Positions 9,644 to 27,495 are shown, counted from the stretch's first letter. The stretch: 64,000 nt of DNA from Microbacteriaceae bacterium (GCA_003852775.1 RDDZ01000129.1:2857-66856); one strand, 5' to 3'. Notes: a model not told the origin generated them from the letters alone. Numbers and translations are program-made.

Positions 9644-10240
9644 TTAGCGTCGTCTCGCGGAACTCATCAGGATATGCGCGGTCGCTCCGATCGCCAGGAA
9701 GCCACCCGCGGTCACCCACGCGGCCAGGCTGTCGTCCGGTGCGAGCGCGAAGCCCCAAATCTCGGCGCCAGGGATCAGTCCTGGGCTGACAATGGCGGGA
9801 AGCAATAGAGCGGCAGCGGGCACAATCCCCGCGAGACGCCGGTCGAAGAACGCTGATGCGATCAGCCCGATGCCCCACATGCCGAGCGTCGCCTTGACGG
9901 GAGCCAGGGCGCCAAGCGTGCCGGTATCGCCGATGAGGACGGATGCAAGCATTGTCGAAGCGACGACCAGGAGCGCGGTGATGAGCCATAGCACCGCTTG
10001 CTCGAGTCGCATGGATCGCGCTGCCTGCCTCTCGAACTCGTGGAAGGCGCTGCTCACCGTATAGAGGAGAATCGCGACGACGACGAACTGCGCCGGCACT
10101 GCCAGAGGCACTGCACTCAGGTATCCGTCGTGTGTGATCTTAAGAGCCGGCGCCGCCCATAGTGGAAGCGTGAGTTCGATGAGGACGACCACGGCCAGGA
10201 TCTGGGGCAGTCGCCGGCTGAGGAGCAGTTGCCAGTTCAC
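9644..10240 (-). CDS. polytopic membrane protein (about 6 TMS), probable ABC-2-type permease partner
   Basis: hydrophobic ORF; GTG at 10240 forms a GTGA overlap with the upstream stop; last gene of the ABC operon. Confidence 0.65.
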   Translation of the reverse strand: MNWQLLLSRRLPQILAVVVLIELTLPLWAAPALKITHDGYLSAVPLAVPAQFVVVAILLYTVSSAFHEFERQAARSMRLEQAVLWLITALLVVASTMLASVLIGDTGTLGALAPVKATLGMWGIGLIASAFFDRRLAGIVPAAALLLPAIVSPGLIPGAEIWGFALAPDDSLAAWVTAGGFLAIGATAHILMSSARRR

Positions 10241-11538
10241 GGCTGGAAGTCGCTCGCGTCCCACTCGCATGACCGGATGTTCGCCGTGTGGGCTTGAACC
10301 CAAGCTCGCGCGGAAGCGTTGTCAAGTGAATACAGGCGATCGAGGGCGTCCACGACGCGCGGGTCGTTGCTCCAGGCGCCCACTCCAAGCGCGGTATCTC
10401 CGGTAAGCCATGCCTGCATGACGACGACACCGCCCAGCCCGAAGTCGCCAGCCGGCCCGTCTTGGCCGGCCTGGGTGCAGTTCATGACGTCGACGAGCGC
10501 ACCTTCGACAGAGAACCTAGCGATCTCTGTCGACTGGGGATTCAGATAAAGGCGCGCGAATCCTTGTGGTGCCCCTTGGTGGTCTGAGTCGAGTTGCTGC
10601 TCAAGCTTGTCGAACGCGAGGTCGCTTTCGGAGAAGAGATCGGCGATTCTGCTCCAGGTGTCGGTGAGTTCATCGGCCACCGGGGCGTAGTGCTCGCGAA
10701 CGCGAATGGTGAGGCCCGTATCCGCATCATTCAGGGTGATGAACGCAAGTTCTGCAGGAGCAGGCTCGCGGCTAGTCCGGCCTTGTTGCCCGATCATCAC
10801 GCCTAGGCCCGAGACGATCACGGCTCCGGCAACGATCATCGTCAGGATGGCCGGTGACCTGTAAGCACGGCGGCGTATGAAGCTGGCGGCCGCGAACACG
10901 ACAGCCGCACCGACCGAGACGAGAGCGGCGCCGCCGAAGAACATCGCGTTGGGAAGGCTCGCGTCGATCGCCACGTACTTGCGGAAGATGTTGATCCACG
11001 TGGCCACGTCGCCCGCGCGCCCAGCGAGAGTCGCGCCGTAGAGGGCAAGCGGGAGCACCGTCGCGACTGGTATCGCTGACCAATGCTGAATCGTCTCCGC
11101 GAGCGCGAAACCGATCGTCGTGAAGCTGAGAACCAGCGCAAGGGAATGCAGAAGCAAGATCGGCTCCGGGACTCCGTACAGCCCAATGAGCATCGACCTG
11201 AGCACGAGGACGAGCGCGATGCAGATCCAGGCCGCGACAACCCACGCGATCCCGCCCAGATAGCGCGGAAGAACGCTCAGCGGCGCCGGGATCGCGGAGG
11301 TCCGTCGTGCGTACTCAACGCGGCGCCGCTCATCCCGTAGTCCTTCCCATGCCCCCGCGCCCGCGAGGAACGGAGTGAGGAAGTAGGCAACGTCGAGCAT
11401 CGACGACTCGATCGAAACCCACGCAGCGATCCTGGGGAAGCTGTTCAGCCAGCCGATTGTCGCGCCCGCCAGAGCGAAGATCGGTGCCCAGTAGCGGAAC
11501 CCCGAGTGCCTCAGCTCAATGAGGAATGGGCGCTTCAT
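10237..11538 (-). CDS. membrane protein with an N-terminal multi-TMS permease-like region and a roughly 170-aa C-terminal soluble (likely extracytoplasmic) domain
   Basis: 433 aa; ATGA overlap with the ATPase stop; the C-terminal domain contains 2 Cys. Confidence 0.7.
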   Translation of the reverse strand: MKRPFLIELRHSGFRYWAPIFALAGATIGWLNSFPRIAAWVSIESSMLDVAYFLTPFLAGAGAWEGLRDERRRVEYARRTSAIPAPLSVLPRYLGGIAWVVAAWICIALVLVLRSMLIGLYGVPEPILLLHSLALVLSFTTIGFALAETIQHWSAIPVATVLPLALYGATLAGRAGDVATWINIFRKYVAIDASLPNAMFFGGAALVSVGAAVVFAAASFIRRRAYRSPAILTMIVAGAVIVSGLGVMIGQQGRTSREPAPAELAFITLNDADTGLTIRVREHYAPVADELTDTWSRIADLFSESDLAFDKLEQQLDSDHQGAPQGFARLYLNPQSTEIARFSVEGALVDVMNCTQAGQDGPAGDFGLGGVVVMQAWLTGDTALGVGAWSNDPRVVDALDRLYSLDNASARAWVQAHTANIRSCEWDASDFQP

Positions 11539-12332
11539 GCACTGGCCTGTCGGGTCTGATTGGCTCGCTGGACGAGCGCAGTGTAGGCGCGTTCCAAGGG
11601 CGTATCGCCAGGCATCTTCGGGTCCTCTTCCGCGAGCATCTCGGGAACACTGCCGGCGAACACCGCTCGTCCGCCCTCCATGACGAGCACATGATCGGCG
11701 ATGGCCTTCACGTCCTCGATCAGGTGGGAGCTGATGACGACACAGCGGTCGGCGGCGAGCCCTCGCAGCGTGTCGCGGAATCGGATGCGCTGCTCGGGAT
11801 CCAGTCCCGCGGTCGGCTCGTCCAAGGCGAGCAGACGAGGTCGGTGGACGACGGCGCTGGCGATCCCCGCACGCCGCAGCATTCCTCCAGAGAGACGTCC
11901 AAGTTTGGTGCGCCGGTGGGCGGTGAGGTCGACGAGTGCCAGCGCGTCCGCGATGAACTCGGGCCGCGCCGTCGTGGGCACTCGTTTGAGCCAGGCCGCG
12001 TACTCGAGGAACTCCTGCACGGTGAAGCCGGGGATGTAGCCGAACTGCTGGGGCAGGAATCCGACCTGGCGCATTAGCTGGAGGCGGTCTCGCTCGGTGG
12101 CAGGGAGGTTCACGCCGAGCACGCTGAGTTGCCCGGCGTGAACCCTCTGCATGGTCACGATCGCGTTGAGGAGCGTCGTCTTTCCTGCGCCGTTGCGTCC
12201 TACGAGAGCGTTGACCCCGTTGTCGAAGCGCAACGTCACGTCGTCGACGGCGGCAGTCGCTGCCCGCCGGTAGCGGATGGTCAACCCATGCGCGACTGCC
12301 CCTGATGCGTGCTCCGATGGCGATCGGCCCAT
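11535..12332 (-). CDS. ABC transporter ATP-binding protein
   Basis: Walker A GRNGAGKTT, signature LSGGMLRR, Walker B LLALDEP; ATG at 12332 behind GAGGAAGGAAG. Confidence 0.9.
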   Translation of the reverse strand: MGRSPSEHASGAVAHGLTIRYRRAATAAVDDVTLRFDNGVNALVGRNGAGKTTLLNAIVTMQRVHAGQLSVLGVNLPATERDRLQLMRQVGFLPQQFGYIPGFTVQEFLEYAAWLKRVPTTARPEFIADALALVDLTAHRRTKLGRLSGGMLRRAGIASAVVHRPRLLALDEPTAGLDPEQRIRFRDTLRGLAADRCVVISSHLIEDVKAIADHVLVMEGGRAVFAGSVPEMLAEEDPKMPGDTPLERAYTALVQRANQTRQASA

Positions 12333-12354
12333 ATGCACTTCCTTCCTCGGACGG

Positions 12355-12753
12355 TCAGCACGTCGCCTTGAGCGTGCCGCTGTTCCCGCTGTTGACCTCG
12401 AAGTTGATGCCGGCCTCGGAGAAGTAGACGTGGTCATTGCCATCGTCGCAGCCGTTCGCGCCGACGTAGTAGTCCTTCTTGTTGCCGGAGTCGCTGCCGC
12501 TGGCGATGATCGGGTGCCACCACCCCTCGCTGCGGTGCACTTCCAGCAGCAGGGTCCGCGTCGCGGTGTTGCTGCAGCTGGCGGAGCCCCATCCGTGGAT
12601 GTAGCTGCCGCTCTTGTAGGGCGTGCCGGAGATGACGGTGCAGTTCCCGTCGGTGGCACTGCCGTCGGCGAAGGCGGCGTAACCGCCGACACCGACCAGC
12701 GCGGTCGACAGAACCGCAGCTCCGGCGGCCGCGAGGATCTTCTTCATACGCAT
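12355..12753 (-). CDS. small secreted 4-Cys protein of unknown family (Sec signal peptide)
   Basis: MRMKKILAAAGAAVLSTALVGVGGYAAFA signal; the mature roughly 100 aa are Gly/Ser/Trp-rich; GGGAG lies 8 nt before the ATG. Confidence 0.7.
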   Translation of the reverse strand: MRMKKILAAAGAAVLSTALVGVGGYAAFADGSATDGNCTVISGTPYKSGSYIHGWGSASCSNTATRTLLLEVHRSEGWWHPIIASGSDSGNKKDYYVGANGCDDGNDHVYFSEAGINFEVNSGNSGTLKATC

Positions 12754-12840
12754 GATGCGACTCCCACACTCATTTGCCATCTCGAGTTCGCCAACTTCGC
12801 CGAACTCGCCCGGGCCGGGATCGACCCGTCTACAGAACTG

Positions 12841-12866
12841 GTTTGGCAGCGGCCCGTTTCCTTACA
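12841..12866 (-). promoter_or_regulatory. island motif copy e: TGTAAGGAAAC-GGGCCGCTGC-CAAAC
   Basis: read directly; 88 nt upstream of the start at 12753 and oriented toward it. Confidence 0.6.
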
Positions 12867-12892
12867 CAATCGGCCCCGGCGAGGGTGCAGTC

Positions 12893-13384
12893 TCAGCTCA
12901 CGCAGGTGAGCTGAGTGATGCCCGCGGGGGCGTAGGCGATCGAGTCGCCGTGGCTCACGCTGGCGAGGACACTGCCGCTGGAGTTCTTCGCCTGCACGTA
13001 TCCACTGCCATGCGCGTTGGCAAGGGAACGCACTGCGCTTAGCACGGAGGTGGAAACGGTAGTGTCGCAGGCGGACAGGCTAAGCTTGCTGCCAGAGAGT
13101 GCATACCCCGAGTAGGCGCAGTGATAGCCGGTGGCGCAGGAGCCGACGGACAGTGGACTGAGCTGGCTCGGATCATCGAGCGTGAGGATCATGGCGCGGT
13201 CGTGCCAGGCGATCTCGTTCGGCGCGGTCTGCGTTCCGCCGGGGAACTCTGCGAGGACCGCGTCGATGCGGGCCTGCAGAGCACTCTCGCCGGGGGTCTC
13301 GGTCGCGCTGGCGGCGATCGGCGTGCTCAACATCAGGGCGAGCCATGTCACGCAGCCACCTCGGCGATAGACAAGCCCTCCCAA
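12893..13384 (-). CDS. secreted protein, paralog of 21932..22432; the C-terminal Cys-containing domain has a C-x2-G-x2-C-aromatic motif reminiscent of peptidase-inhibitor I36/SMPI-like domains
   Basis: about half of positions match the paralog by eye (LQARIDAVLAE[FY]PGG..NEIAW, SC[AT][TA]G[YH][HY]CAY.GY.LSGSKLS); start uncertain (TTG 13384, GTG 13351 or ATG 13333). Confidence 0.65.
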   Translation of the reverse strand: MGGLVYRRGGCVTWLALMLSTPIAASATETPGESALQARIDAVLAEFPGGTQTAPNEIAWHDRAMILTLDDPSQLSPLSVGSCATGYHCAYSGYALSGSKLSLSACDTTVSTSVLSAVRSLANAHGSGYVQAKNSSGSVLASVSHGDSIAYAPAGITQLTCVS

Positions 13385-13752
13385 TAGGTGAGGTGGATTG
13401 CAGGGGCGTCCTGCGCCGGCAATCGCGTCATCGCTAGGCGAAGCTCGACATCCTCGAGGTCCCCATCCCAAGTTGCCACCTCCTGCAACTCCTCCATCAC
13501 CTGCTGTCGCATCCAGGCTTGCTGCGTCGCACGACGTTGATGCTCATTGCCGATGAGATTCCTTGCTGTCCGCAGTAGCCAGCGGATCGTGATCGTGGTG
13601 CCAGACAGATGCTTCTCCAGCGCCCGAGCGAACGCCTCAGCCGTCAGGTCTTCGGCCAGCTCTCGGTTGTCGACTCGCTGGCAGATGTACCGTTCGATCG
13701 TCCGATAGCTGCGTTCGTAGAGGCTCGTGAAGAGCTGAATGTCTGGCTCCAC
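13348..13752 (-). CDS. ECF sigma-70 paralog truncated inside region 4.2 (lacks the -35 recognition helix)
   Basis: aligns with the 20402..20935 sigma through ...LTYWEGLSIAEVAA and then stops; GTG start 45 nt downstream of motif copy d. Confidence 0.6.
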   Translation of the reverse strand: MEPDIQLFTSLYERSYRTIERYICQRVDNRELAEDLTAEAFARALEKHLSGTTITIRWLLRTARNLIGNEHQRRATQQAWMRQQVMEELQEVATWDGDLEDVELRLAMTRLPAQDAPAIHLTYWEGLSIAEVAA

Positions 13753-13796
13753 GTGCCTCCCCTCTCACGCTGGGACAACACCGTCCCGCATATACA

Positions 13797-13822
13797 GTTT
13801 GGCGAGAGCCCGAATCCTTACA
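13797..13822 (-). promoter_or_regulatory. island motif copy d: TGTAAGGATTC-GGGCTCTCGC-CAAAC
   Basis: read directly; precedes the truncated sigma gene. Confidence 0.6.
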
Positions 13823-13910
13823 CGCGGATTGGATTCTTGCTCCGCCTCCCTCAGCGGGTTGTCGGCGACCGTCCGATCAACCTCCGACGGGTGAGCCCTA
13901 CGATCGCACC

Positions 13911-14243
13911 GTGGACGACACTGCGGATCTGAGCGACGAGGTCGCCCGCTCGCTCGCCCGCAAGGCGTTCGCGTACCACATGATGAGCATCGAGCTCGGG
14001 CCGATGTCCGGGGCCAGCATCCGCGACACGCTGCTCATGGTGTGGCAGGACGCGGGCAGTCCGCCCGGCGCCTTCACGCGCGCTGCGCGGGTCGCAGCGA
14101 TCCTGGTCGACCGCATGGCCGAGTCGGACGAGGACGAGGACGATCCGCTGCGCGGGCTCGGCGTCTCCCGTGAGCAGCAGATCGCCATCGCCCAGCAGGG
14201 GGCAGCCTTCCTCACGACGCTCGCGCGCGAACTCGAGGGATAG
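13911..14243 (+). CDS. hypothetical acidic cytoplasmic protein
   Basis: 110-aa ORF with ordinary composition and no signal peptide; the only plus-strand ORF in this part of the island. Confidence 0.45.
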   Translation: MDDTADLSDEVARSLARKAFAYHMMSIELGPMSGASIRDTLLMVWQDAGSPPGAFTRAARVAAILVDRMAESDEDEDDPLRGLGVSREQQIAIAQQGAAFLTTLARELEG

Positions 14244-14290
14244 CCGCACCGGGAGCCGGTGCGCGGCGCCAGCTCAGGTCATCTCGAGCG

Positions 14291-14689
14291 TCAGTCCTCG
14301 AAATGGAAGGGCCCCGGGCATGACCTGATCGGATTGTCCGGCGCCGTGCGAACGTCGAGACGCTCGTCGACCAGCGTCGTCCCGTCGCTCATGGTCACCA
14401 CCACACGAGCGATCGTCGGTGGATTGATCGAGTCTCCGCTTCGGTAGGGCTGCTCCTGCGGGATCCCGAGTCGACCGTCACCGTCGATCGCGACCTCTGC
14501 CGGCGTACAGCCGTCATCGAGGCATGCCGACAAGATCGCGCCATCCGGCAGCGACCCCACGATCTTCACCGCGATCGGATCGGTGTTGATGTAGCCGACG
14601 GTCGTGCATGCGCAGCCGGAGAGCACCACCGGCAGGGCTGGCAGCAACGCGACCGCGACCCCGAGACGGAGTAGTCGCGGTGCCTTCAT
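14291..14689 (-). CDS. lipoprotein of unknown function
   Basis: MKAPRLLRLGVAVALLPALPVVLSGC lipobox; several Cys in the mature part. Confidence 0.65.
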   Translation of the reverse strand: MKAPRLLRLGVAVALLPALPVVLSGCACTTVGYINTDPIAVKIVGSLPDGAILSACLDDGCTPAEVAIDGDGRLGIPQEQPYRSGDSINPPTIARVVVTMSDGTTLVDERLDVRTAPDNPIRSCPGPFHFED

Positions 14690-14762
14690 GGTCAAGATGC
14701 TAAGCCGCGGGGGTTTCGGGCCGTCGCTGTGGCGAGTGGCCTGCGACATCTCCGAGGTCGTA

Positions 14763-15407
14763 TTAGGTCCCGTAGATGCTCTCGGGGGTCTGCGGGCAGT
14801 TCGCGAAGACTCTCTTCATGTCGGCCTCTGCAATGGCGATGTCCTCGAACGGCGACCATCCCGCGTTCGTCTGGATGAACACGGCCACGCTGGGCGGGTC
14901 GGGCTCGACGCTGTATCCCTCCCTCTCAAGACAGCTCACGAGCTCACCTGTCCGGTACTCGTAGAGCCTGGTCAACGCATCGGTCGACAGCGGGGTCATG
15001 TACTTGAGTTGGGTGGGGTACTTCAGCTCGCACGTATAGATCGCCAGATTCAAGGACTGGCGGAGAGTGGGGTCTTCGATCGGCGGGTAGCGGATCCCTT
15101 GTCCGTCGGCCGTTTCCGTGGCATCGAATCCCGCTTCTTGGAGGCATGCGATCTGCGTCGGTGCCCACTCGTTGAGGGTGATGAGCCGGACGAGCTCCAC
15201 CTTGGGGGGATCAACGATCCCGAGTTGGCCCGCGAGAGCAGTCGCAGTCTCATCCAGGTAGGCGCGGGTGGCGGAGTCCACTTCCGTTGCGCTCGAGTCG
15301 CTCGAGTCCGGGGGGTTTAGGGGGTCACGTTGAGGCGTGCACGCAGTGATGGTGAGCGCAACCGTGCTCACCATCACCGCGACTAGTGCCGTTCGAAGAG
15401 CCTTCAC
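14763..15407 (-). CDS. lipoprotein, paralog of 19414..20076
   Basis: VKALRTALVAVMVSTVALTITAC lipobox; GTGA overlap with the upstream small gene; shared blocks IYTC.[LI][KR]YP, PDPPS[VL].VF. Confidence 0.7.
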   Translation of the reverse strand: MKALRTALVAVMVSTVALTITACTPQRDPLNPPDSSDSSATEVDSATRAYLDETATALAGQLGIVDPPKVELVRLITLNEWAPTQIACLQEAGFDATETADGQGIRYPPIEDPTLRQSLNLAIYTCELKYPTQLKYMTPLSTDALTRLYEYRTGELVSCLEREGYSVEPDPPSVAVFIQTNAGWSPFEDIAIAEADMKRVFANCPQTPESIYGT

Positions 15408-15781
15408 GAATGGCAGACCGCGTTCCCGTAGGTGATGTCGCCGCCGATTCCGGTGAGGAACACCCGCCAGTAGTAGACGGTCGAGTAGCTGGTGAGCGAC
15501 CACCTCGTCTGCGAGGTGCTGCCGTTGTTCCAGTGGTCCAGGACGATGTAGTTGGCCTCGTGGTTGATGCCGCCGGTTGACGTCGACTGCACCTGCACGT
15601 GTGGCACCGAGCCGGAACAGACCTTGTTGTAGCCGTCGATCTGCGAAGCAGCCGAGGCCGCGACTGCCGGCACGACGGCCGCCGCCAGACCGACGGCGAG
15701 TGCGGCCGCGATCACCCGTGTCTTGCCCATGCGCTTCGTCGACCCTGGCTTGACAGCCGATCGTGGGCTTCGTCTCAGCAT
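15404..15781 (-). CDS. small secreted protein bracketed by two Cys, unknown family
   Basis: ATG at 15781 behind GAAGGAGGA; signal ...AVVPAVAASAAS; the mature roughly 80 aa have Cys near both ends. Confidence 0.7.
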   Translation of the reverse strand: MLRRSPRSAVKPGSTKRMGKTRVIAAALAVGLAAAVVPAVAASAASQIDGYNKVCSGSVPHVQVQSTSTGGINHEANYIVLDHWNNGSTSQTRWSLTSYSTVYYWRVFLTGIGGDITYGNAVCHS

Positions 15782-15832
15782 GATGTCCTCCTTCATCTTC
15801 GACCTTCATCTTCAACTGCCCTTGACTGTTCT

Positions 15833-15858
15833 GTTTGCCGAGTCGGCGAATCCTTACA
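15833..15858 (-). promoter_or_regulatory. island motif copy a: TGTAAGGATTC-GCCGACTCGG-CAAAC
   Basis: read directly; 52 nt upstream of the start at 15781. Confidence 0.6.
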
Positions 15859-15936: not shown

Positions 15937-17046
15937 CTAGGGCACCCGCAGCTCACGGATCGGATCACGTCGTGCGGCGACAACGGCGGGGATCAAGGCC
16001 GCGACGACGCTCACGGCGATCGCTAGAACCGCGATTGCGGCGGTGAAGGCCAAGCCGGGGAGTGGATCGCCGCTGAACGCCAGCACCATGCTCGCAACGC
16101 CCGAACCGAGTGCAGCGCCGAGGGTCGCGAGTACGAGAGTTTGGGTGAGGAGGATGCTCACGATCAGTCCGCGGGTGGCGCCCAGGGCTCGGCGCCGACC
16201 GAAGTCCTTGCGGCGCAGCGTGACGAGCCCGGTCAGGATCGCCGCGACGAGTAGCCCACTGACGGCGAGGATCAGCAATACCAAACCACGTCCGAAGGCG
16301 CCGAGCTGCCCCTGCACAAGGGCCCGCAGCTGTGCCAGGGCCTCGCTCGTGGTGATCGTGATCTTGGTCGGGTCGTCGACGGCGAGCAAGGACTGTACCG
16401 CTGGGGCAACTGCAGCGACGAGGTCTGGCCGCTCGGCCACGACGACGAGCACGGCGACCGGTTCCGGCTCGACCGGTGCCCGTGGCACGAACAGGGCGGG
16501 CTCGAGAAACCCGAGCCAGTCTGGAATGTCCATTTGCCCGGCGACGGGGTAGTTCGCGCCGCTCTGGTTGGTGACGGAGCCTGCGTGGTCGACGAGACCG
16601 AGCTGCCCGAGCGACAGGGCGGTTCCCCAGGCAGTCGAACCCGGTAGCGCGGACGACTCGGGGATTCCGATCGACGTCAGGTGCGCGCCATAGGCGAAGC
16701 GAGCCGCGACCTTCGTTCCGTCCGGGATCAGCGTGTTGGTCACGTCGAAGGCAGGTCCGAACGCGGCGACCCATTCGATGCCGTCCACGGTGCTCAGCCG
16801 CGTCACGACCGAACTTGTCAGCCCGGCGGCGGGTTCGGCGCGCACGATGGTCGTCCGGGTTCCGGCGGAGTCGATCGAGCCGAGGACAGCCTGCTCCGCG
16901 CCGACGGTGCGGCCGGTGGTCAGCAGGACGGTTGCGCACAGCCCGGCGACCATGATGATGGTCGCGATGGAGGCGATCGGGCTGGACGCCGCGGCAGCTA
17001 GCGCCTCGCGGATGACGCCGCCGAGTCGGCGGAGCCCGGCGCTCAC
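15937..17046 (-). CDS. FtsX/MacB-type ABC permease (4 TMS with a large extracytoplasmic loop)
   Basis: TM1, a roughly 210-aa loop, then 3 C-terminal TMS; GTGA overlap with the ATPase stop. Confidence 0.8.
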   Translation of the reverse strand: MSAGLRRLGGVIREALAAAASSPIASIATIIMVAGLCATVLLTTGRTVGAEQAVLGSIDSAGTRTTIVRAEPAAGLTSSVVTRLSTVDGIEWVAAFGPAFDVTNTLIPDGTKVAARFAYGAHLTSIGIPESSALPGSTAWGTALSLGQLGLVDHAGSVTNQSGANYPVAGQMDIPDWLGFLEPALFVPRAPVEPEPVAVLVVVAERPDLVAAVAPAVQSLLAVDDPTKITITTSEALAQLRALVQGQLGAFGRGLVLLILAVSGLLVAAILTGLVTLRRKDFGRRRALGATRGLIVSILLTQTLVLATLGAALGSGVASMVLAFSGDPLPGLAFTAAIAVLAIAVSVVAALIPAVVAARRDPIRELRVP

Positions 17047-17684
17047 AGGGTGATGCTCCGATCGCAGCGTTCGACCAGGACCGGGTCGTGCGTCACGACG
17101 ATCACCGTCGCACCGCTGTCGGCGTGCTCGTGGAACGCGTCGACGACAACATCCGAGGATGCTGGGTCCAGGTTCCCGGTCGGTTCGTCGGCGAGCAGGA
17201 TCCGGGGTGTGCCCAGCAGTGCCCGGCACAGCGCGATGCGCTGCGCTTGCCCTCCGGATACCTGGCCAGGCTTCGCCTCGGACCGCAGCTGAACGCCGAA
17301 CCGTTCGAGAAGTCCCTCGGCGACCGGCACGGCCTCCGAGCGCGACTCGCCCCGATACAGCGCGGTCTCCAGCACGTTGTCGAGCACCGTGCGCGTGGCG
17401 TCGAGAGCCGCGTCCTGGAACACGAAGCCGAACTGCCGCGCCCGGAGCCTCGCCCGTGCCCGGTCGGGGAGGGATTGCACCGGCTCGCCGTCGAGCAGTA
17501 CCTGCCCCGCCGCAGGTGCGAGCATCAGTCCCAGCAGATACAGAAGGGTCGATTTCCCCCGACCGGAGGGGCCGGTGATCGCCACGACCTCCCCGGCGTT
17601 GAACGAGGCCGACCACTGGTCCAGCAGCGGTACGGTCGACTCGTAGCCGAACGTGAGATCCCGTGCATCGAGGAGTGCTGGCAT
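17043..17684 (-). CDS. ABC transporter ATP-binding protein (MacB/LolD-type)
   Basis: GPSGRGKST, VSGGQAQRIALCRAL, LLADEPTGNLD. Confidence 0.9.
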   Translation of the reverse strand: MPALLDARDLTFGYESTVPLLDQWSASFNAGEVVAITGPSGRGKSTLLYLLGLMLAPAAGQVLLDGEPVQSLPDRARARLRARQFGFVFQDAALDATRTVLDNVLETALYRGESRSEAVPVAEGLLERFGVQLRSEAKPGQVSGGQAQRIALCRALLGTPRILLADEPTGNLDPASSDVVVDAFHEHADSGATVIVVTHDPVLVERCDRSITL

Positions 17685-17688
17685 GGGG

Positions 17689-18780
17689 TCAGCCTCCGCT
17701 TGCCGGCACGCGCACGCGCAGGCCCGCGCTGACTCCCTCGATGACGGACATGCCTCGGGCGCTCGTCACGACGGTGACTCGGTGCTCGGTGCCGTCCTCC
17801 TCGAGCACAACGATCGTGCCGTCGGCGCGGGAGACCAGCGCGGCGCTCGGCACGGTCAGTCCCGTCACCGTCTCGACGGTCACGACTTGTGAGCGAAGCA
17901 GCGATTGCTCGGTGACGGAGATCGTGCCGCACTCGGTTCCGCACACCGGTGCGCCGTCGGCGCCGCCGAGGATCACGTCGATCGTCCCGCCCTGTTGCTG
18001 TGCAACCCGGTCGACGACGAACCCTTCCCAGGCTTGCCCGTCGGGTCCGGTGACCTCGACCCGCGTCCCATCGGGCATCATCCCGGACTGGGACTCGGTT
18101 ACCGGCACCCGGAACGTCGGGGCCGGCGGGAGGCCCAAGATGACGGGGTCGCTAGCGCCGAGTGACGCGCCGCGCACCACCTTGTCCGCATCGAGCGAGA
18201 TCCGCGTCGGCAGCGACGGCACGAATACCACGTCGCCCGCTTGCACCACACCGTCGACATCGACGCCGAGGCTCTCCTGCCACGCCTCGACCGCCGCCTG
18301 CGTCAGCCAACCGAAATCGCCCGAGACATCCCCCCTGTAGAAGCCGAGCTGGGTCAGCATCGCCTGGAGTTGTGCGACATCAGCCCCGGCCGTGTTTCTG
18401 GAGAGGGTTCGAAACGCGGGTACATCTCCCTGCGCGATCACTACGGGACGCAGGTTGACTGCATAGAGCACCGAGCCCACACTGACCTCCTGGCCGGCCG
18501 TGACCGAGACCGAGGTGACGGTGCCGCTCGCAAGGTTCGCAGCAATCGGGATCGGCTTCCACTCGGCCACGGTGTTCAGGTTGATGCTCGATCCGACCTC
18601 ACCGCGAACGACCTCCGCCGTCGTGAACGGCGTCGAATCCAGTACGTCGGGCGGAGGCGCGAAGATCGTGCTGCCCGCCCAGCCGACAGCTGCGCCCGCG
18701 GCCAAGAGAATGACGCCGCCGAGCACGCCACCGACCCACCAGCGGGCGCGAGACTTCGTACGACCTGATGACGAGTTCAT
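17689..18780 (-). CDS. membrane-anchored HlyD/MacA-like adaptor with an inserted peptidoglycan-binding-like repeat
   Basis: N-terminal TM; DVAQLQAMLTQLGFYRGDVSGDFGWLTQAAVEAWQ (PG_binding_1-like); beta-barrel-like C-terminus; ATG at 18780. Confidence 0.75.
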   Translation of the reverse strand: MNSSSGRTKSRARWWVGGVLGGVILLAAGAAVGWAGSTIFAPPPDVLDSTPFTTAEVVRGEVGSSINLNTVAEWKPIPIAANLASGTVTSVSVTAGQEVSVGSVLYAVNLRPVVIAQGDVPAFRTLSRNTAGADVAQLQAMLTQLGFYRGDVSGDFGWLTQAAVEAWQESLGVDVDGVVQAGDVVFVPSLPTRISLDADKVVRGASLGASDPVILGLPPAPTFRVPVTESQSGMMPDGTRVEVTGPDGQAWEGFVVDRVAQQQGGTIDVILGGADGAPVCGTECGTISVTEQSLLRSQVVTVETVTGLTVPSAALVSRADGTIVVLEEDGTEHRVTVVTSARGMSVIEGVSAGLRVRVPASGG

Positions 18781-19065: not shown

Positions 19066-19368
19066 TCAGGTGCAGTAGGGGGTCGGGCCGCTGCTGAAGG
19101 AGTAGATGGTGGCCGCGGTCCAGTTGGCGTCGGTGTAGTTCGAAACGCTGTAGTGGACAGCGGTGTCGGACCAGCTCCAGACCTGCGAGCCAATCCAGTG
19201 CGTCAGATCCGCGCCGGTCGCGGAAGACGTCAGCGAGACCGCAGACGCTCCACCCGGGCAGTGCTTGTGCCCGCTTCCGCTCGCCATGGCGAAGGCCGGC
19301 GCGGCCAGGCCGAGCCCGATTGCCACTCCCAGCGAGGCTCCGATCAGGAGCCGCTTCCTCTTTCTCAT
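19066..19368 (-). CDS. small secreted protein bracketed by two Cys; distant relative of 15404..15781
   Basis: MRKRKRLLIGASLGVAIGLGLAAPAFA signal; mature roughly 73 aa; shared pattern C.G....V.[LV].S[ST].TG...H..W. Confidence 0.7.
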   Translation of the reverse strand: MRKRKRLLIGASLGVAIGLGLAAPAFAMASGSGHKHCPGGASAVSLTSSATGADLTHWIGSQVWSWSDTAVHYSVSNYTDANWTAATIYSFSSGPTPYCT

Positions 19369-19413
19369 GGTTCCACCCTTCCTTTCGTGATTCAGCGGAT
19401 GGGCCGACAGCGC

Positions 19414-20076
19414 CTACTCGTAAAGATCCGTCGGGTACTGCGGGCAGGCGGCGTTGATTTCTTGCCATTGATCGTTGGACTTGACCTGATTCTGAACATC
19501 GCCGTAGATGTTCCACGCGTCCGGGCTTCCGTGCTTTTCGAGGAACACCTCGAGGCTCGGTGGTTCCGGCACCGCGATGCCGAAGGATTCAAGGCATGGC
19601 GTGAGGACCGTCTTCGAGTAGTCGTAGATGCGACGCAGCTGCTCGCCGTTGAGCGGTCCCTGGAACTTCGGGTCGATCGGGTATCGGATCTTGCACGTGT
19701 AGAGCGCGACCGCGTAAGCCTCGCCTTGCTCAGCAGTATCGAAGAAGACGGACCCATCAGGTTGGGCCACGGCATCGAACCCTTCGCCGTTCAGGCATTC
19801 AGCGATAGTCGTCGCCCACTCGGGTGGCGCGACCGTGCGGACTAGGTCCGTTTCGGGACGCACCGCCCCGGGGTATCGAGCAGAGACTTGAGCCCACGCA
19901 GCGTCCGCCACCTCGCTGAGAGAAGAGTCCGAAGTTGAAGGCGCGGGCGGCTCGCTTCCCGGTGCGCTGCACGCCGTCAGGAGGAATGCGGCTGCCACCA
20001 TCGCGTATGCCGCTGCCTGGCCCCGGCGCAAGGCCGAGAGCCCGCCGGGGCGAAGCTGAACACCTTGACTCGCCAT
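19414..20076 (-). CDS. lipoprotein, paralog of 14763..15407
   Basis: ATG at 20076 behind GGAAGG; ...AAAFLLTAC lipobox. Confidence 0.7.
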   Translation of the reverse strand: MASQGVQLRPGGLSALRRGQAAAYAMVAAAFLLTACSAPGSEPPAPSTSDSSLSEVADAAWAQVSARYPGAVRPETDLVRTVAPPEWATTIAECLNGEGFDAVAQPDGSVFFDTAEQGEAYAVALYTCKIRYPIDPKFQGPLNGEQLRRIYDYSKTVLTPCLESFGIAVPEPPSLEVFLEKHGSPDAWNIYGDVQNQVKSNDQWQEINAACPQYPTDLYE

Positions 20077-20191
20077 GATGTACCTTCCGCAGTCGCGTGA
20101 TGTCTTCGCCATCAGATGTTCTCCGGAAACTCCGGCCCCTCCCGGGTGACGTACCCCGCGTTGGTCTAGGACGGGCGCGCCCGGCATCCCT

Positions 20192-20221
20192 TCACAGTCG
20201 ATCGGGGCTTCGTCTCAGCAC
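20192..20221 (-). pseudogene. relic of a small-secreted-protein gene start (GTG-LRRSPDRL-stop)
   Basis: GGAGGACATCGTGCTGAGACGAAGCCC matches GGAGGACATCATGCTGAGACGAAGCCC at 15781; a 1-nt deletion then gives TGA. Confidence 0.6.
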
Positions 20222-20257
20222 GATGTCCTCCTGCATCGGAATACCCTCGAGTGTTCT

Positions 20258-20283
20258 GTTTGCTGAGTCGGCGAATCCTTACA
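20258..20283 (-). promoter_or_regulatory. island motif copy b: TGTAAGGATTC-GCCGACTCAG-CAAAC
   Basis: read directly; faces the lipoprotein operon. Confidence 0.6.
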
Positions 20284-20330
20284 AACTTCGGTCTGTCGAG
20301 CGGCGACGCGCAGCGCGCCCGAAATCTGAA

Positions 20331-20356
20331 TGTAAGGATTCGGCGGCTCGGCAAAC
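20331..20356 (+). promoter_or_regulatory. island motif copy c: TGTAAGGATTC-GGCGGCTCGG-CAAAC
   Basis: read directly; 46 nt upstream of the sigma GTG start; back-to-back with copy b. Confidence 0.6.
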
Positions 20357-20401
20357 TCTTATACGAGAAGCAGACTGTGCCTACAGCCAGGGGGAGGGTT
20401 A

Positions 20402-20935
20402 GTGGAGCCGGATCCCGAGGCTTTCACCAAGCTCTACCTCAGCAACTACCGGACGCTGGTCCGCTACACCTACCTACGTGTCAACGACCGAGCCTTGGCG
20501 GAGGACCTTGCCGAAGATGCGTTCCTGCTCGCCTGGGAGAAAGCACCGAGCCTGGAAGCGGTCACCCCCCGCTGGCTGTTCGCCACCGTGAGGAATCTGA
20601 TCGGCAACGAATACCAACGACGCGATCGAGAGCGCATCAGAGTACAGCAAGCGGGAATGGAGGAAGCCGCGAGCGTGGAGGCGTGGGGATTGCACATCGA
20701 GCACATCGGACTCCGCCTGGCGATGGCCGAGCTGCGCCCGGATGACTCGCTCCTGCTCCAGCTGACCTACTGGCACGGGTTGTCCGCTGCCGAGACCGCT
20801 GAGTTCCTGGACTGCACGGTCGCCGCGGTGTGGGTTCGGCTGACTCGGGCTCGCGCGGCGTTGCGCACGCTCCTGGACGATGCCAACGTCATGCCTTCGC
20901 GTCGACGAGATCGAGGCGGTAAGGCTCATGGATGA
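20402..20935 (+). CDS. ECF (group 4) sigma-70 factor, full length
   Basis: region 2 (DLAEDAFLLAW, RWLFATVRNLIGNEYQRR) and region 4.2 HTH (LSAAETAEFLDCTVAAVWVRLTRAR). Confidence 0.85.
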   Translation: MEPDPEAFTKLYLSNYRTLVRYTYLRVNDRALAEDLAEDAFLLAWEKAPSLEAVTPRWLFATVRNLIGNEYQRRDRERIRVQQAGMEEAASVEAWGLHIEHIGLRLAMAELRPDDSLLLQLTYWHGLSAAETAEFLDCTVAAVWVRLTRARAALRTLLDDANVMPSRRRDRGGKAHG

Positions 20936-21929
20936 CCTGACCCGGCTGCTGCGCGAGAACAATCCCTTCCGGGACGCGCCGTTGCCCGAACGCGCGACGC
21001 GACGGCTTGACGACATCATCTCGGGCCGACGGGAGACTCGCCACGATGTCGCCCTCCCACCGCTTCGAAGCCAACGGACGCCCGCGCTGCTGGCGGGGGC
21101 GGCCTTCGTCGTGACGCTGGTGGTCGTCGCGCTGGTCCTGGTGTCCGTGCGCCCGCAGGTTGCGATGGCTGTGACTCCGAACCTGCTCGAGCTCCGCCCG
21201 ACCGTGACCACCATCGACACCTTGCGCGAGGATCTCGTGACGTCACCCCTGAACCCGCGGCCGACCGCGACTAGCCGTGGCGCCCAGTGGGAAGGCTGGT
21301 TCCTTCAGCTCGACGCCGACCGACCGGCGGCGACCTTCATCCAGCCGCAGCGCGTCCAGATCGCCTGGGGCGAGGATTTCTCGGGCAGCAGCCGCATCGT
21401 CGCCGGGACGCCGATGACCGCCGATGGCTCCGTGATCGAGCCGGTCCCCGCGGGTGCGGCCGCGCCGGGCACCACGCTCTACGAGGAGACCTGGGGACCT
21501 GGCGAGTACCCGGTGCCCTTCCCGGAGGCTCCGCCCGAGGACGCTGCTGGGATGCGCGGCTACCTCGAGGCCTTCCTCGCCTCGCTCGGCGTCACCGAGG
21601 CGGGGTCACGCTCCGCCGGCGAGTATCTGTATGCCCTCAGCTCGCTGATGCAGTTCTGGACTCTCGGCGACGCGGCCCAGCGCACCGCTATCGAAGTGAT
21701 CGTCTCCGCTCCTGGCTTCCAGGTGGCGGGTGAAACGACCGATCGGGCCGGCCGTGCCGGGGTCGTCCTGGACATCGCGCCGACCGAGCTCGAGCCCGGC
21801 TATCGGACGCAGCTCGTCGTCGACATCCGATCCTGGCGACTGCTGGCCGTCGAGCGAATCAGTATCGCCGGCGACCCAGACTTCCACATTGCCCCTGATT
21901 CGGTAACCGACTACACCCTCTGGAGATAG
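20928..21929 (+). CDS. single-pass membrane protein in the anti-sigma position with a roughly 260-aa extracytoplasmic domain
   Basis: 8-nt overlap with the sigma stop; N-terminus MDDLTRLLRENNP...; TM ALLAGAAFVVTLVVVALVLVSV. Confidence 0.7.
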   Translation: MDDLTRLLRENNPFRDAPLPERATRRLDDIISGRRETRHDVALPPLRSQRTPALLAGAAFVVTLVVVALVLVSVRPQVAMAVTPNLLELRPTVTTIDTLREDLVTSPLNPRPTATSRGAQWEGWFLQLDADRPAATFIQPQRVQIAWGEDFSGSSRIVAGTPMTADGSVIEPVPAGAAAPGTTLYEETWGPGEYPVPFPEAPPEDAAGMRGYLEAFLASLGVTEAGSRSAGEYLYALSSLMQFWTLGDAAQRTAIEVIVSAPGFQVAGETTDRAGRAGVVLDIAPTELEPGYRTQLVVDIRSWRLLAVERISIAGDPDFHIAPDSVTDYTLWR

Positions 21930-21931
21930 CA

Positions 21932-22432
21932 ATGCGCAACATCACGACCGGTCGCGGCCGTATGGCTGCCCTCGCCGTCATCGGGGCCATCGCCCTGATC
22001 CTCGGCACGCCGCTCGCCGCATCAGCGGCGGACAAGGACTCCGACGCGCTCCAGGCGCGCATCGACGCTGTGCTCGCCGAGTACCCCGGCGGCGTGCAGA
22101 TCGCCGCCAACGAGATCGCCTGGGACGAAGGTGCCGTGGTGCTCACGCTCGATGCTCCCGGCTCCGCGTTCGGCGTGCTGGACGTCGGCTCGTGCACGGC
22201 TGGCCACTACTGCGCCTACAACGGCTACAGCCTCAGCGGAAGCAAGCTGAGCTTCAGCTCGTGCGCCACCCCGCAGCCCACCGGCATCATCGGCACGGTG
22301 CGGTCGGTCGCCAACGCACGCACTAGCGGCTCCGTCTACGCCCTCAACTCGGGCGGCGGCATCCTGGCGACCATCGGCGCGAACGACTCCCTGCCTATTG
22401 CGCCCGGCGGCATCACTGACCTCTCCTGCTGA
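21932..22432 (+). CDS. secreted protein, paralog of 12893..13384 (I36/SMPI-like Cys motif)
   Basis: signal MAALAVIGAIALILGTPLAASA; starts 2 nt after the anti-sigma stop. Confidence 0.75.
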   Translation: MRNITTGRGRMAALAVIGAIALILGTPLAASAADKDSDALQARIDAVLAEYPGGVQIAANEIAWDEGAVVLTLDAPGSAFGVLDVGSCTAGHYCAYNGYSLSGSKLSFSSCATPQPTGIIGTVRSVANARTSGSVYALNSGGGILATIGANDSLPIAPGGITDLSC

Positions 22433-22455
22433 GGTCGGCAGACCGCCGCCGATAT

Positions 22456-22471
22456 CGGCGGTCGGCGTGAG
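22456..22471 (+). terminator. GC-rich perfect palindrome CCGCCGATATCGGCGG downstream of the sigma operon (no U tract)
   Basis: read directly, 24 nt after the stop codon. Confidence 0.3.
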
Positions 22472-22506
22472 CGCGGTGGAGCGCGGCACGAGGAAGCGGC
22501 GTGTCG

Positions 22507-22532
22507 TGTAAGGAATGGGCGTCCCAACAAAC
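22507..22532 (+). promoter_or_regulatory. island motif copy f: TGTAAGGAATG-GGCGTCCCAA-CAAAC
   Basis: read directly; 66 nt upstream of the ATG at 22598. Confidence 0.55.
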
Positions 22533-22597
22533 CGTCTAGGTAAGCGGAGATACCGCGGCCGCCCCCTGATCGGGACAATCGGCAAGGATGGACGATC

Positions 22598-23236
22598 ATG
22601 GGATCTACGAAGAAGCTCGGGCTGCTGTTCGCAGCAGCCCTCGCGATGGTCTTCATCGCTCCCGCCGCAGCTCAGGCTGCGGCGGCAGACTCGCCACCGC
22701 CGGCGACTGCATCAGACAGCTCTAACGTGAACAGCCTGATCGCGAGCGATCCGAACGCGGAGTTCGTCTCGCTCGAGGTCGCAGAGAAGCAGTACGGGTT
22801 CGACCCCTATGCCGCCGATGCGACGGAGAGCACCGGCCCCGTCGTCACGCCGTTCTACGCATGGTGGGGATGTGACTGGGACGCCGTCACGGACTATCCG
22901 CACGTGAGCTCGGGCCAGGCATCGGTTCACGGGTACTGGGTCTACAACAGCGGCGACTGCCCGGCTACGGCCACTGTAACCGTCAACCTCCAGGCGCTTT
23001 GGTGCAGCGGGATGTGGGGTTGCAGCTGGTACACGCTGGCGACCGACGTCGCGACTGGCGTCTACCCGGGCTCGGGCACGGGTCACTGGGCCACGCCCCA
23101 TTCCCCTTGTGCGACCACGTCCGTCGTCGGCTGGCGGGGCTCGGTTTTTGTCGAGCCGACGGACTTCTGGCACCCCTACGGCTGGACGGACGGCACGCCG
23201 CAGAACCTCTCCTGCTCCCCGCCGGATCCGAGCTGA
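22598..23236 (+). CDS. secreted Trp/Cys-rich protein of unknown family
   Basis: signal MGSTKKLGLLFAAALAMVFIAPAAAQA; the mature part has 8 Cys and many Trp (WWGCDW, LWCSGMWGCSWY). Confidence 0.7.
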   Translation: MGSTKKLGLLFAAALAMVFIAPAAAQAAAADSPPPATASDSSNVNSLIASDPNAEFVSLEVAEKQYGFDPYAADATESTGPVVTPFYAWWGCDWDAVTDYPHVSSGQASVHGYWVYNSGDCPATATVTVNLQALWCSGMWGCSWYTLATDVATGVYPGSGTGHWATPHSPCATTSVVGWRGSVFVEPTDFWHPYGWTDGTPQNLSCSPPDPS

Positions 23237-23715
23237 TGCCTGACGACCTGAGGCGGGGCCGGTTCGTGCCGCTCGGTGACCCCGAGGCGGCGCGACCCGA
23301 CCCCGCCAAGCGTCTGCCCTTCGACCTCTCCAAACTGTCGGTGACGGGTCTGGTCATCGTCTGCGAACTCGCTCCGCCGCCACCGGGCAACGCCCGCCCG
23401 AGCATGAGCATGACGATGACCCAGTACCTGCGGCTATCGGATCATTCGATGATTCGCCTCGACATGGATCGAGGCGTGGATACGTTCAAGTTCGGATACG
23501 CCGACCCGCCTTCCTGGAAACGGACTGCCGCAGAGGTTGTCGCGGAAGTGCTGACGCTGATCCAGGGTGATGAGCCGGATCCAGGATCGTTCCCCTGGCA
23601 CGAGTATGCGGAGGCCGCTAGGTTGCGCGGGATCTCGGTTGACGCTGAGGCACTGCGCGACCTGCCCCACGCGGTGCTGCTGTCCGATGAGCTGGCTGCC
23701 ACATTCGAGTTCTGA
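23236..23715 (+). CDS. hypothetical cytoplasmic protein translationally coupled to the Trp/Cys-rich secreted protein
   Basis: TGATG stop/start overlap; 159 aa; no signal peptide or TM. Confidence 0.5.
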   Translation: MPDDLRRGRFVPLGDPEAARPDPAKRLPFDLSKLSVTGLVIVCELAPPPPGNARPSMSMTMTQYLRLSDHSMIRLDMDRGVDTFKFGYADPPSWKRTAAEVVAEVLTLIQGDEPDPGSFPWHEYAEAARLRGISVDAEALRDLPHAVLLSDELAATFEF

Positions 23716-25125: not shown

Positions 25126-25149
25126 GGGGTTCCTCTCGGTCGGAAACGG

Positions 25150-27486: not shown

Positions 27487-27495
27487 AGACGCAGT

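Follow-up and report, generated by a model that had tools for sequence, protein, structure and literature searches.

Related systems and the locus under study

In lantibiotic self-immunity, a LanI lipoprotein binds the antimicrobial and a LanFEG ATP-binding cassette (ABC) pump expels it, NisI/NisFEG being an example. Lactococcin 972 is a Sec-dependent beta-sandwich bacteriocin that is accompanied by an ABC ATPase and a membrane protein resembling FtsX, and the YknWXYZ transporter of Bacillus depends on sigma-W. YknWXYZ is of the MacB type, contains a membrane-fusion-type adaptor and protects against the secreted SDP toxin (PMC4887032); lactococcin 972 targets lipid II (PMC8538875). Here, we analyze a 64-kb window (the whole stretch RDDZ01000129.1:2857-66856 of assembly GCA_003852775.1, 64,000 nucleotides, all positions counted from its first letter) from a Microbacteriaceae bacterium, a high-GC actinobacterium. 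The subject of the study is an island at positions 9644-23715 that contains genes for a sigma factor of the extracytoplasmic function (ECF) type, lipoproteins, small secreted cysteine-containing proteins and a MacB-type pump. We assign a probability of roughly 0.4 to the reading that this island is a horizontally acquired, mosaic, ECF-controlled system of secreted antagonists, immunity lipoproteins and a protective pump, the functions being predicted from sequence.

A preceding description of the same DNA (the sequence-only reading) had already proposed a horizontally acquired, self-regulated envelope or secreted-effector system. The present analysis adds three points: a promoter and its regulon are defined, the origin is mosaic and mobile, and two undescribed paired protein families surround a conserved pump. 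Gene starts were set from the calls on an identical Logan contig (L001), and further contigs and loci used for comparison are likewise designated by L numbers. All features of the island are listed in Table 1.

A putative ECF regulon of five transcription units

The gene at 20402-20935 encodes a true ECF sigma factor. The protein scores 65.3 bits against TIGR02937 (cut-off 42.9) and contains sigma-2 and sigma-4 domains only. Its stop codon is overlapped by the start of the gene for a candidate membrane anti-sigma factor, which reaches 63 bits against the CU044_5270 model with its cut-off of 100 and is composed of a short cytoplasmic N-terminus, one transmembrane (TM) segment at approximately residues 49-84 and a large extracytoplasmic domain. 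Homologues of this protein (25-47% identity) are always encoded directly 3' of the sigma gene in L020, L022 and L024.

A repeat search of the window first brought to light the 25-nt motif GTAAGGAWWCG-N8-SCAAAC, which has five exact matches in the 64 kb compared with 0.00 expected from shuffled sequences. All five reside within the island, 44-90 nt 5' of the first gene of a transcription unit (TU) and in the same orientation; the copy in front of the intact sigma gene reads GTAAGGATTCGGCGGCTCGGCAAAC. Because of these five exact and co-oriented copies, none of which lies outside the island, the latter has the appearance of a single autoregulated ECF regulon with five units, with predicted binding of the motif by the sigma factor and predicted induction. 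Self-regulation by an ECF factor had been part of the sequence-only reading and is borne out by a single bipartite motif that stands before the sigma gene and four other operons and also before an orthologous sigma gene elsewhere. In the latter case, an unrelated metagenome-assembled genome (MAG; L023/L024), the motif is found unchanged 66 nt 5' of the sigma gene (54% identity), and a copy with three mismatches faces the divergent neighbouring ABC operon. Contigs L005-L008 contain three copies at equivalent places, and in Microbacterium protaetiae a related version, GTCAGGATTC...CGTAGAT, is present on both sides of a divergent promoter region. Within the island, the motif precedes both sigma genes, the intact and the truncated one. 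Sigma-70-type promoters and intrinsic terminators are not enriched in the island.

The third gene of the sigma/anti-sigma cassette encodes I36R, a secreted protein with a conserved N-terminal domain. I36R and its paralog I36L from the left part of the island pass the gathering score of PF03995 by a narrow margin only; they are 100% identical to EAS51_12550 and EAS51_12485, respectively, from a MAG named 'Microbacteriaceae bacterium'. The I36-like family comprises 75 clusters, nearly all of them from Microbacteriaceae, and some members are named 'peptidase inhibitor family I36 protein' at NCBI. The order sigma, anti-sigma, I36-like is kept in three further contexts (Agromyces soli, Microbacterium protaetiae and another MAG), in two of which the triad is divergent from an operon with a leading small secreted Cys protein and an ABC exporter. 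The last two genes of the sigma operon encode WC212, for which there was no match in Pfam, NCBIfam, PADLOC, PHROGs or among PDB sequences, and orf159, without a family match in PHROGs and further family scans.

The operon divergent from the triad in Microbacterium protaetiae (CP035494; L022, positions 1029-6178) shows the same theme with different protein families. Its products are a secreted I36/crystallin-like protein of 147 aa, a Cys-containing lipoprotein of 297 aa with an internal repeat, a repeat paralog of 107 aa, an adaptor with a region resembling peptidoglycan (PG)-binding domains and a fused MacB.

Two paired protein families around a conserved pump

Two of the five units combine genes for a small Sec-exported protein and a lipoprotein, and one of them also encodes the pump. 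The family of the small proteins sec125 and sec100 is rare (8 clusters) and uniformly built. A signal peptide and exactly two cysteines, 62-70 residues apart, are present in 11 of the 11 proteins examined, one cysteine being located just past the cleavage site and the other 1-6 residues from the C-terminus. The ends of the mature protein, which is approximately 75 residues long, are probably tied together by a single disulfide. The partner lipoproteins lipo232 and lipo203 belong to a second family, termed here the 4-Cys lipoproteins, for which a full profile search yielded 2765 representative clusters at E <= 1e-3 and 310 at E <= 1e-30, and a word-index search four. Named members are all 'hypothetical protein' and stem from Microbacteriaceae; no Pfam or NCBIfam model matches. 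All have a lipobox and four invariant cysteines, and the mature part is very acidic, with an isoelectric point (pI) around 4.2. The AlphaFold2 (AF2) model of lipo232 is all-helical with a predicted local distance difference test (pLDDT) score of 84.9 (above 90 over residues 70-230), and the fold search returned no match, the best E-values being 2.5 in PDB and 0.39 in BFVD. An alignment of 49 lipoprotein sequences was tried as a locus probe and discarded as too divergent. Pfam and NCBIfam scans revealed no enzymatic domain in any of the small proteins and lipoproteins.

The pump consists of the membrane-anchored adaptor pgAd, the ATPase abcB and the FtsX-family permease. Membrane-fusion features of the adaptor are weak (Biotin_lipoyl_2 at 20.5 bits and RND_mfp at 20.7 bits, both below cut-offs), and the best NCBIfam models for the ATPase are FtsE, LolD, Lcn972-group ABC and MacB with 166-168 bits, all below their cut-offs. 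Hydropathy analysis of the permease predicts a first TM segment at 15-46, a loop of approximately 150-200 residues and a C-terminal TM bundle. The MacB periplasmic core domain (PF12704) was not detected in the island pump at E <= 0.01; the fused MacB of L022 carries it.

Both protein families adjoin adaptor/ATPase/FtsX genes in five independent settings. The island and its mobile relatives contain two lipoproteins (plus one fragment in L005) and two small proteins (three in L005). At the chromosomal locus L017 of another Microbacteriaceae MAG the numbers rise to five and six, respectively, and L002 encodes at least ten lipoproteins together with one decayed small protein that has no signal peptide. 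Three lipoproteins and one small protein, in a small-then-lipoprotein pair, accompany a 60% identical pump in an Actinomycetota MAG (L010), and one of each, the small one identified by eye, is found next to a 51-64% identical pump on a Clavibacter plasmid (L026), where a plasmid-borne signal peptidase I comes next. Between the window, L002 and L017, pump identities amount to 81-88% (81-82% for the permease in L002 and L017), and the lipoprotein paralogs of one locus share 22-42% identity. The pair lipo232/sec100 recurs in L017 as an adjacent lipo-then-small pair with 51% and 53% identity. For four L002 lipoproteins, L017 has orthologs (64-75%) adjacent to small genes that L002 lacks, an orphan-immunity pattern. 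A comparison of genomes had been recommended by the sequence-only reading as a check; the triad as well as the combination of pump and small protein/lipoprotein pairs recur in other genomes.

The island itself has lost a gene for a small protein. P_lipo232 is followed by a ribosome-binding site and some 13 codons (20200-20237, cf. 15765-15797) that are near-identical to the start of sec125, carry a 1-nt deletion and are the frameshifted relic of such a gene. The equivalent place in the related element L005 (5250-6165) is occupied by a complete gene for a 126-aa small protein and a lipoprotein fragment.

Two of the loci have neighbours of their own interest. The Clavibacter plasmid is pCL-A6099 from Clavibacter sp. 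A6099, on which the small 2-Cys secreted protein, the family lipoprotein and lepB come after the pump (11994-14456), and a gene for thiopeptide-type bacteriocin biosynthesis resides a few kb past lepB. The L002 array with its pump (1-8700) lies beside an IS3-family transposase, a type ISP restriction-modification enzyme of 1597 aa and an AAA_13 protein, a neighbourhood that resembles a defence island.

Table 1. Promoter motifs, predicted transcription units and genes of the island and its right border
Feature	Position	Strand	Evidence and remarks
P_sigma	20332..20356	+	exact motif; 46 nt 5' of sigma start codon
P_lipo232	20258..20282	-	exact motif; divergent from P_sigma
P_sec125	15833..15857	-	exact motif; conserved in L005-L008
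P_sigTr	13797..13821	-	exact motif; 44 nt 5' of truncated sigma gene
P_sec132	12841..12865	-	exact motif
TU1	motif 20332	+	sigma, anti-sigma, I36R, WC212, orf159
TU2	motif 20258	-	lipo232, sec100, adaptor, ATPase, FtsX
TU3	motif 15833	-	sec125, lipo203, lipo152
TU4	motif 13797	-	truncated sigma, I36L
TU5	motif 12841	-	sec132, ABC ATPase, two permeases
ECF sigma factor, 177 aa	20402..20935	+	Pfam Sigma70_r2 and Sigma70_r4_2
Candidate membrane anti-sigma factor, 333 aa	20928..21929	+	NCBIfam CU044_5270 (NF038083), E = 3e-17
I36R, secreted I36-like 4-Cys protein	21932..22432	+	PF03995 23.4 bits, cut-off 21.1
WC212, Sec-signal Trp/Cys-rich protein (11 Trp, 6 Cys)	22598..23236	+	97% identical in L005
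orf159, cytoplasmic protein	23236..23715	+	L001 gene call; start overlaps WC212 stop; 94% identical in L005
lipo232, acidic lipoprotein of the 4-Cys helical family	19414..20112	-	lipobox LTAC; pI 4.2
sec100, small Sec-exported 2-Cys protein, lipo232 partner	19066..19368	-	family hidden Markov model, E = 4e-33
pgAd, membrane-anchored adaptor	17689..18780	-	PF01471 (PG_binding_1) 49 bits; one N-terminal TM segment
abcB, MacB/LolD/FtsE-type ABC ATPase	17043..17684	-	PF00005 104 bits
ftsX, FtsX-family permease	15937..17046	-	PF02687 38 bits, residues 255-359
sec125, small Sec-exported 2-Cys beta-rich protein	15404..15781	-	AF2 model, seven strands
lipo203, second 4-Cys-family lipoprotein, sec125 partner	14763..15374	-	32% identical to lipo232
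lipo152, small Cys-rich lipoprotein unrelated to the 4-Cys family	14291..14749	-	lipobox LSGC; 93% identical in L005; no family match
sigTr, truncated paralogous ECF sigma factor, 134 aa	13348..13752	-	50% identical to intact sigma; ends inside region 4
I36L, paralog of I36R (57% identity)	12893..13351	-	PF03995 21.8 bits, cut-off 21.1; without charged N-terminal part of signal peptide
sec132, Sec-signal 4-Cys protein	12355..12753	-	unrelated to 2-Cys family; no family match
abcA + perm1 + perm2	9644..12332	-	abcA, ABC ATPase, 11535-12332, PF00005; DrrA/GldA-like
TraC/VirB4-like conjugation ATPase, C-terminal fragment (relic), 184 aa	23810..24364	-	tblastn

Composition, mosaic structure and mobility of the island

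The GC content is 66.0% within 9644-23715 and 70.8% in the remainder of the window. Windows of 500 nt range from 61 to 71% inside the island and from 65 to 77% outside (Mann-Whitney p = 5e-10), the 10th-90th percentiles per 60-nt line are 58-73% and 63-78%, respectively, and the mean GC at third codon positions (GC3) of the genes is 0.82 in the island compared with 0.92 in the rest of the window (p = 1e-6). The sequence-only reading had reported 52-63% GC against about 75% outside. The dip itself is real and is evident as a compositional break in both windowed GC and codon analysis; the figures were wrong and exaggerated the gap about threefold. Its gene inventory, i.e., a sigma/anti-sigma pair, a truncated sigma, secreted proteins, three lipoproteins and two ABC modules, proved correct when examined with Pfam, NCBIfam and lipobox/TM analysis, and the predicted signal peptides, lipoboxes and TM segments agree with those described before. 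The five small Cys proteins that it had listed together are all present and yet do not form one class. They are of three unrelated kinds, namely the 2-Cys family (15404 and 19066), the I36-like pair (12893 and 21932) and a singleton (12355). The model and structure searches it had advised for the secreted proteins placed the I36-like pair marginally in PF03995 and left the remainder without a named family.

Apart from the ECF, CU044_5270-like, I36-like, ABC, PG_binding_1 and FtsX assignments, the island proteins had no match in Pfam, NCBIfam, PADLOC, PHROGs or PDB sequences, and in sequence searches of PDB, I36R, WC212 and perm1 as well as the profiles of the lipoproteins and of the small proteins did not yield any match below E = 0.2. 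A known system of anti-phage defence was considered and rejected, PADLOC having returned generic ABC-ATPase similarities only and PHROGs nothing. A known plasmid was likewise dismissed: a megablast search with 16 kb against PLSDB produced two short aldehyde-dehydrogenase matches only. Neither sec132 nor WC212 could be accepted as a distant member of the 2-Cys family (hhalign probabilities of 1% and 11%, respectively, the latter resting on the signal peptide alone).

Earlier treated as one unit, the island is instead a mosaic of two cassettes. The segments 13935-20088 and 20321-24122 are 94.7% and 96.1% identical at the nucleotide level to contigs from several other samples. In these related contigs (L005/L012 type), the same genes precede those for a zeta toxin and a TraG/VirD4 coupling protein. 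One related copy sits inside a 277-kb contig and is therefore integrated. Of the boundaries drawn before, the right one at 23715 was too short. The DNA in common with the mobile element spans 13935-24122, and its end, as defined by L005/L012, falls inside the TraC fragment. The genes of the right cassette are all intact, and their proteins share 93-99% identity with the copies found in other samples.

The left 4.3 kb (9644-13935) were found in this genome and in one identical Logan contig only. They are a second, decayed cassette with a truncated sigma factor and without an anti-sigma factor. The truncated protein reaches 37 bits against TIGR02937 and stays below the cut-off of 42.9, the end of region 4 being missing, and the junction between sigTr and I36L marks the loss of the anti-sigma gene. 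The truncated sigma, the missing anti-sigma gene and the lost start of I36L together point to a deletion of approximately 1.2 kb. As both match the consensus exactly, the two promoters of the decayed cassette are probably driven by the intact sigma factor. The ATPase abcA has NCBIfam matches of 100-147 bits, every one below its cut-off. The products of perm1 and perm2 are multi-TM proteins according to TM prediction and have no Pfam match, and relatives of perm1 were not found in metagenome contigs.

The flanks correspond to the earlier description of a conjugative ATPase relic on the right and decayed genes on the left. The C-terminal TraC fragment at 23810-24364 matches 114 actinobacterial plasmids in tblastn searches (38-68% identity; the features are annotated as 'ATP-binding protein' or 'conjugal transfer protein TraC'). 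On the left side, a 5'-truncated aldehyde dehydrogenase gene, with Pfam positions 193-461 of 461 left, abuts the island, and an FAD_binding_2 fragment (positions 278-414 of 414) lies beyond it. The claim of horizontal acquisition is upheld by the lower GC and GC3, by about 10 kb with 95-96% identity that are found beside TraG and zeta toxin elsewhere, by the TraC fragment and by the truncated host gene at the left junction. Of the coupling protein, VirB4/TraC ATPase, relaxase and integrase that make up an integrative/conjugative element, the window contains the 184-aa TraC-like fragment only, TraG/VirD4 being encoded in the related contigs; for this reason, the copy in the window is a remnant and not a functional conjugative element.

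Several observations concern the borders and the neighbourhood of the island. A fusion in L005 (488-1579) joins an unrelated N-terminal secreted protein in frame to the C-terminal 102 residues of the TraC-like fragment, giving 363 aa in total, and marks the same rearrangement point as the right border in the window. The non-coding scar between the TraC fragment and a CsoR-like gene contains a 51-nt direct repeat (24617-24667 and 24744-24794, 80% identical). Directly right of the island, the minus-strand cluster 24850-27933 encodes a CsoR/CstR-like repressor (PF02583) of the metal- or persulfide-sensing type, a CoA-disulfide-reductase/rhodanese fusion, a thioredoxin and a rhodanese lipoprotein, and looks like an operon for sulfide/persulfide stress. 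Similar redox cargo, together with arsenic genes, is present on a Microbacterium plasmid with a TraC homolog. On the left, the truncated aldehyde dehydrogenase and FAD_binding_2 genes are part of a tract of gene fragments (5765-9513) in which a 3-hydroxyisobutyrate-dehydrogenase C-domain and a metallo-beta-lactamase fold share one open reading frame (ORF); these fragments could reflect true decay or frameshifts in the MAG assembly. Further right, tRNA-Ser genes at 33474-33565 and 34923-35008 (anticodons gct and tga) are located beside and between two paralogous LytR-Cps2A-Psr (LCP) genes (33615-36542), and a short helix-turn-helix-like ORF (33078-33389) adjoins the first of them. Genes for tRNA-Ser often serve as integration sites.

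Possible function of the paired proteins

In the mechanism that we propose, the membrane anti-sigma factor would hold the ECF sigma factor inactive and an envelope signal would release it. The freed sigma factor would then read the five promoters, its own and those of four other operons. The output would consist of the MacB-type machine with its PG-binding adaptor, ATPase and FtsX permease and two cognate small protein/lipoprotein pairs, in addition to the I36-like and Trp/Cys-rich secreted proteins and the second ABC module from the decayed sister cassette. The I36-like protein, a constant companion of the sigma/anti-sigma pair, probably modulates signalling outside the membrane. The small proteins would be secreted, bacteriocin-like antagonists of a cell-envelope target in related bacteria, the lipoproteins would act as their cognate immunity proteins and neutralise them at the outer face of the membrane, and the ABC machine would export or expel the small proteins and add to protection. 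We rank this reading first because the cognate pairs are variable, the arrays are rich in lipoproteins and the genes are carried on mobile DNA, as in toxin/immunity loci. Where the sequence-only reading had offered a choice between antimicrobial proteins with self-protection and an envelope-stress response, the comparative evidence leans towards the former, given the variable pairs and the arrays with almost no small partners. A bolder and more doubtful version, which we offer tentatively, would see in the 2-Cys proteins a new class of Sec-dependent, disulfide-closed beta-sandwich bacteriocins of Microbacteriaceae and in the 4-Cys lipoproteins their immunity, accumulated in arrays with small-protein partners that are few or absent around a conserved, PG-anchored MacB-type pump, spread on conjugative elements and fired by the ECF factor from a defined promoter.

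A number of points weigh against antagonists and immunity proteins. The sec125 model is of moderate confidence (mean pLDDT 62, 65-77 in the mature part), its fold matches are weak (carbohydrate-binding-module-like and DipZ-C-like, E around 0.1) and include no known bacteriocin, and none of the top 50 PDB matches, judged by entry codes and titles only, is described as having a lactococcin 972 fold. The small proteins also had no match to lactococcin 972 models in NCBIfam, a library that should contain the family model TIGR01653. With pI values of 4.6-9.4, they are near neutral and not cationic, and there is no clear charge complementarity to the lipoproteins; moreover, the presumed toxin has less than half the size of the presumed immunity lipoprotein. 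The independent loci amount to a handful, most of them metagenomic, and L004 contains a lone lipoprotein homolog with no pump in 10 kb upstream or in the 4 kb of contig downstream. An assignment of -35 and -10 elements inside the motif had to be rejected, as the spacing does not fit the 16-17 nt usual for ECF promoters. Finally, ECF factors more usually govern defence than attack.

A rival reading does without any toxin. The island would be an ECF-controlled module for envelope stress or resistance, comparable to sigma-W/YknWXYZ or BceAB-type detoxification, in which the pump removes foreign envelope-active compounds and lipoproteins and small proteins serve as protective binders or decoys. 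ECF sigma factors typically control envelope defence, the triad adjoins different ABC exporters in L022 and L023/L024, and L002 keeps the pump and its lipoproteins with almost no small proteins, so both can persist without a toxin. That a MacB-type pump with an adaptor can be protective is evident from YknWXYZ and the SDP toxin (PMC4887032). We regard this as somewhat less likely than the first reading, for it explains neither why each lipoprotein type is paired with a co-diverging, uniformly built small secreted protein nor why both families vary while the pump is conserved. A machine of the MacB/LolCDE kind that extracts variable lipoproteins or gives them their place in the wall, assisted by the small beta-rich proteins as partners or chaperones, appears improbable. 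The lipoproteins would then be variable surface molecules, acting for example in exclusion of conjugation or phage or as adhesins of the mobile element. This reading would suit an ATPase that scores equally against LolD, MacB and FtsE, the action of the FtsX-family machine LolCDE on lipoproteins, the ride of the module on conjugative-element DNA and the position of the L002 copy beside a type ISP restriction enzyme. However, the permease has negligible similarity to LolC/E (18 bits, cut-off 362), the small proteins are far below LolA/LolB-type carriers in size, PADLOC and PHROGs returned nothing specific, and the L017 locus lies among housekeeping genes and not on an element.

The data are fitted worst by the view that the island is what is left of a conjugative element, dead and with genes that have ceased to cooperate. 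The truncated sigma and lost anti-sigma of the left cassette, the small-protein relic behind P_lipo232, the TraC fragment and the truncated flanking genes do speak of decay. The intact right-cassette genes with their closely similar proteins in other samples, the exactness of all five promoter motifs and the conservation of the gene sets across distant Microbacteriaceae make this view highly improbable. We continue to favour secreted antagonists with cognate immunity lipoproteins and a protective pump.

Implications and comparison with described systems

Microbacteriaceae are common soil and plant bacteria and include the pathogen genus Clavibacter. If the pairs consist of toxin and immunity protein, they would represent an undescribed protein-based competition system in this family, and a role would be found for a large lipoprotein family without annotation or known fold. 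Whatever its function, the regulon is compact: a single sigma factor and a single anti-sigma factor are joined by a constant I36-like partner and by five exact promoters. It could be put to use as an orthogonal switch and could lead to the signal that is sensed by CU044_5270-type anti-sigma factors. It also suggests a case of regulon capture, as two operons of the truncated-sigma cassette keep promoters that the intact paralog should read.

Neither a connection between ECF factors and I36-like proteins nor the combination of pump and lipoproteins was found in any paper of a literature library of incomplete coverage; owing to this incompleteness, the negative result is weak evidence for novelty. 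The island shares with the ECF/CU044_5270-type anti-sigma pairs of Actinomycetota the two-domain ECF sigma factor followed by a single-pass membrane protein matching NF038083 and a seemingly autoregulatory promoter, and differs in that its anti-sigma candidate stays below the family cut-off. The conserved I36-like third gene and the island promoter motif were not found described in the literature searched. Proteins I36R and I36L resemble peptidase inhibitor family I36, typified by SMPI of Streptomyces, in just passing PF03995 and in having four cysteines. Unlike SMPI, they possess an extra conserved N-terminal domain of approximately 45 residues and are fixed beside a sigma/anti-sigma pair, and inhibition is only putative.

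The island belongs to none of the LanI/LanFEG, sigma-W/YknWXYZ and lactococcin 972 systems. With lactococcin 972 it has in common an unmodified, Sec-exported, beta-rich small protein encoded beside an FtsX-type protein and a MacB/LolD-like ATPase. The 166 bits of abcB against the Lcn972-group ABC model are below the cut-off of 255 and no better than the scores for FtsE/LolD, and while lactococcin 972 is devoid of cysteine and its loci of a lipoprotein partner, the small proteins of the island have an invariant cysteine pair. Membership in this group was rejected, sec100, sec125 and sec132 having no NCBIfam match at E <= 0.01, and the likeness is one of analogy only. The anchored lipoproteins and the ABC transporter beside a presumed secreted antimicrobial, apparently co-regulated, recall LanI/LanFEG, and the same division of labour may be proposed. 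There is no relation in sequence or fold, however, and the island pump is FtsX/MacB-type with a PG-binding adaptor, whereas the Lan pump is of the ABC-2 type. The presumed antimicrobial of the island is an unmodified Sec-exported protein and not a lanthipeptide, control appears to be exerted by an ECF sigma factor and not by a two-component system, and the lipoproteins occur in multi-copy variable arrays. YknWXYZ resembles the island in its apparently ECF-controlled combination of a MacB-type ATPase and an FtsX-family permease with an adaptor. In the island, by contrast, the adaptor carries PG_binding_1, YknW has no counterpart, the pump is flanked by small-protein/lipoprotein pairs, and the sigma gene is adjacent and divergent, with an I36-like protein encoded by the third gene of its cassette.

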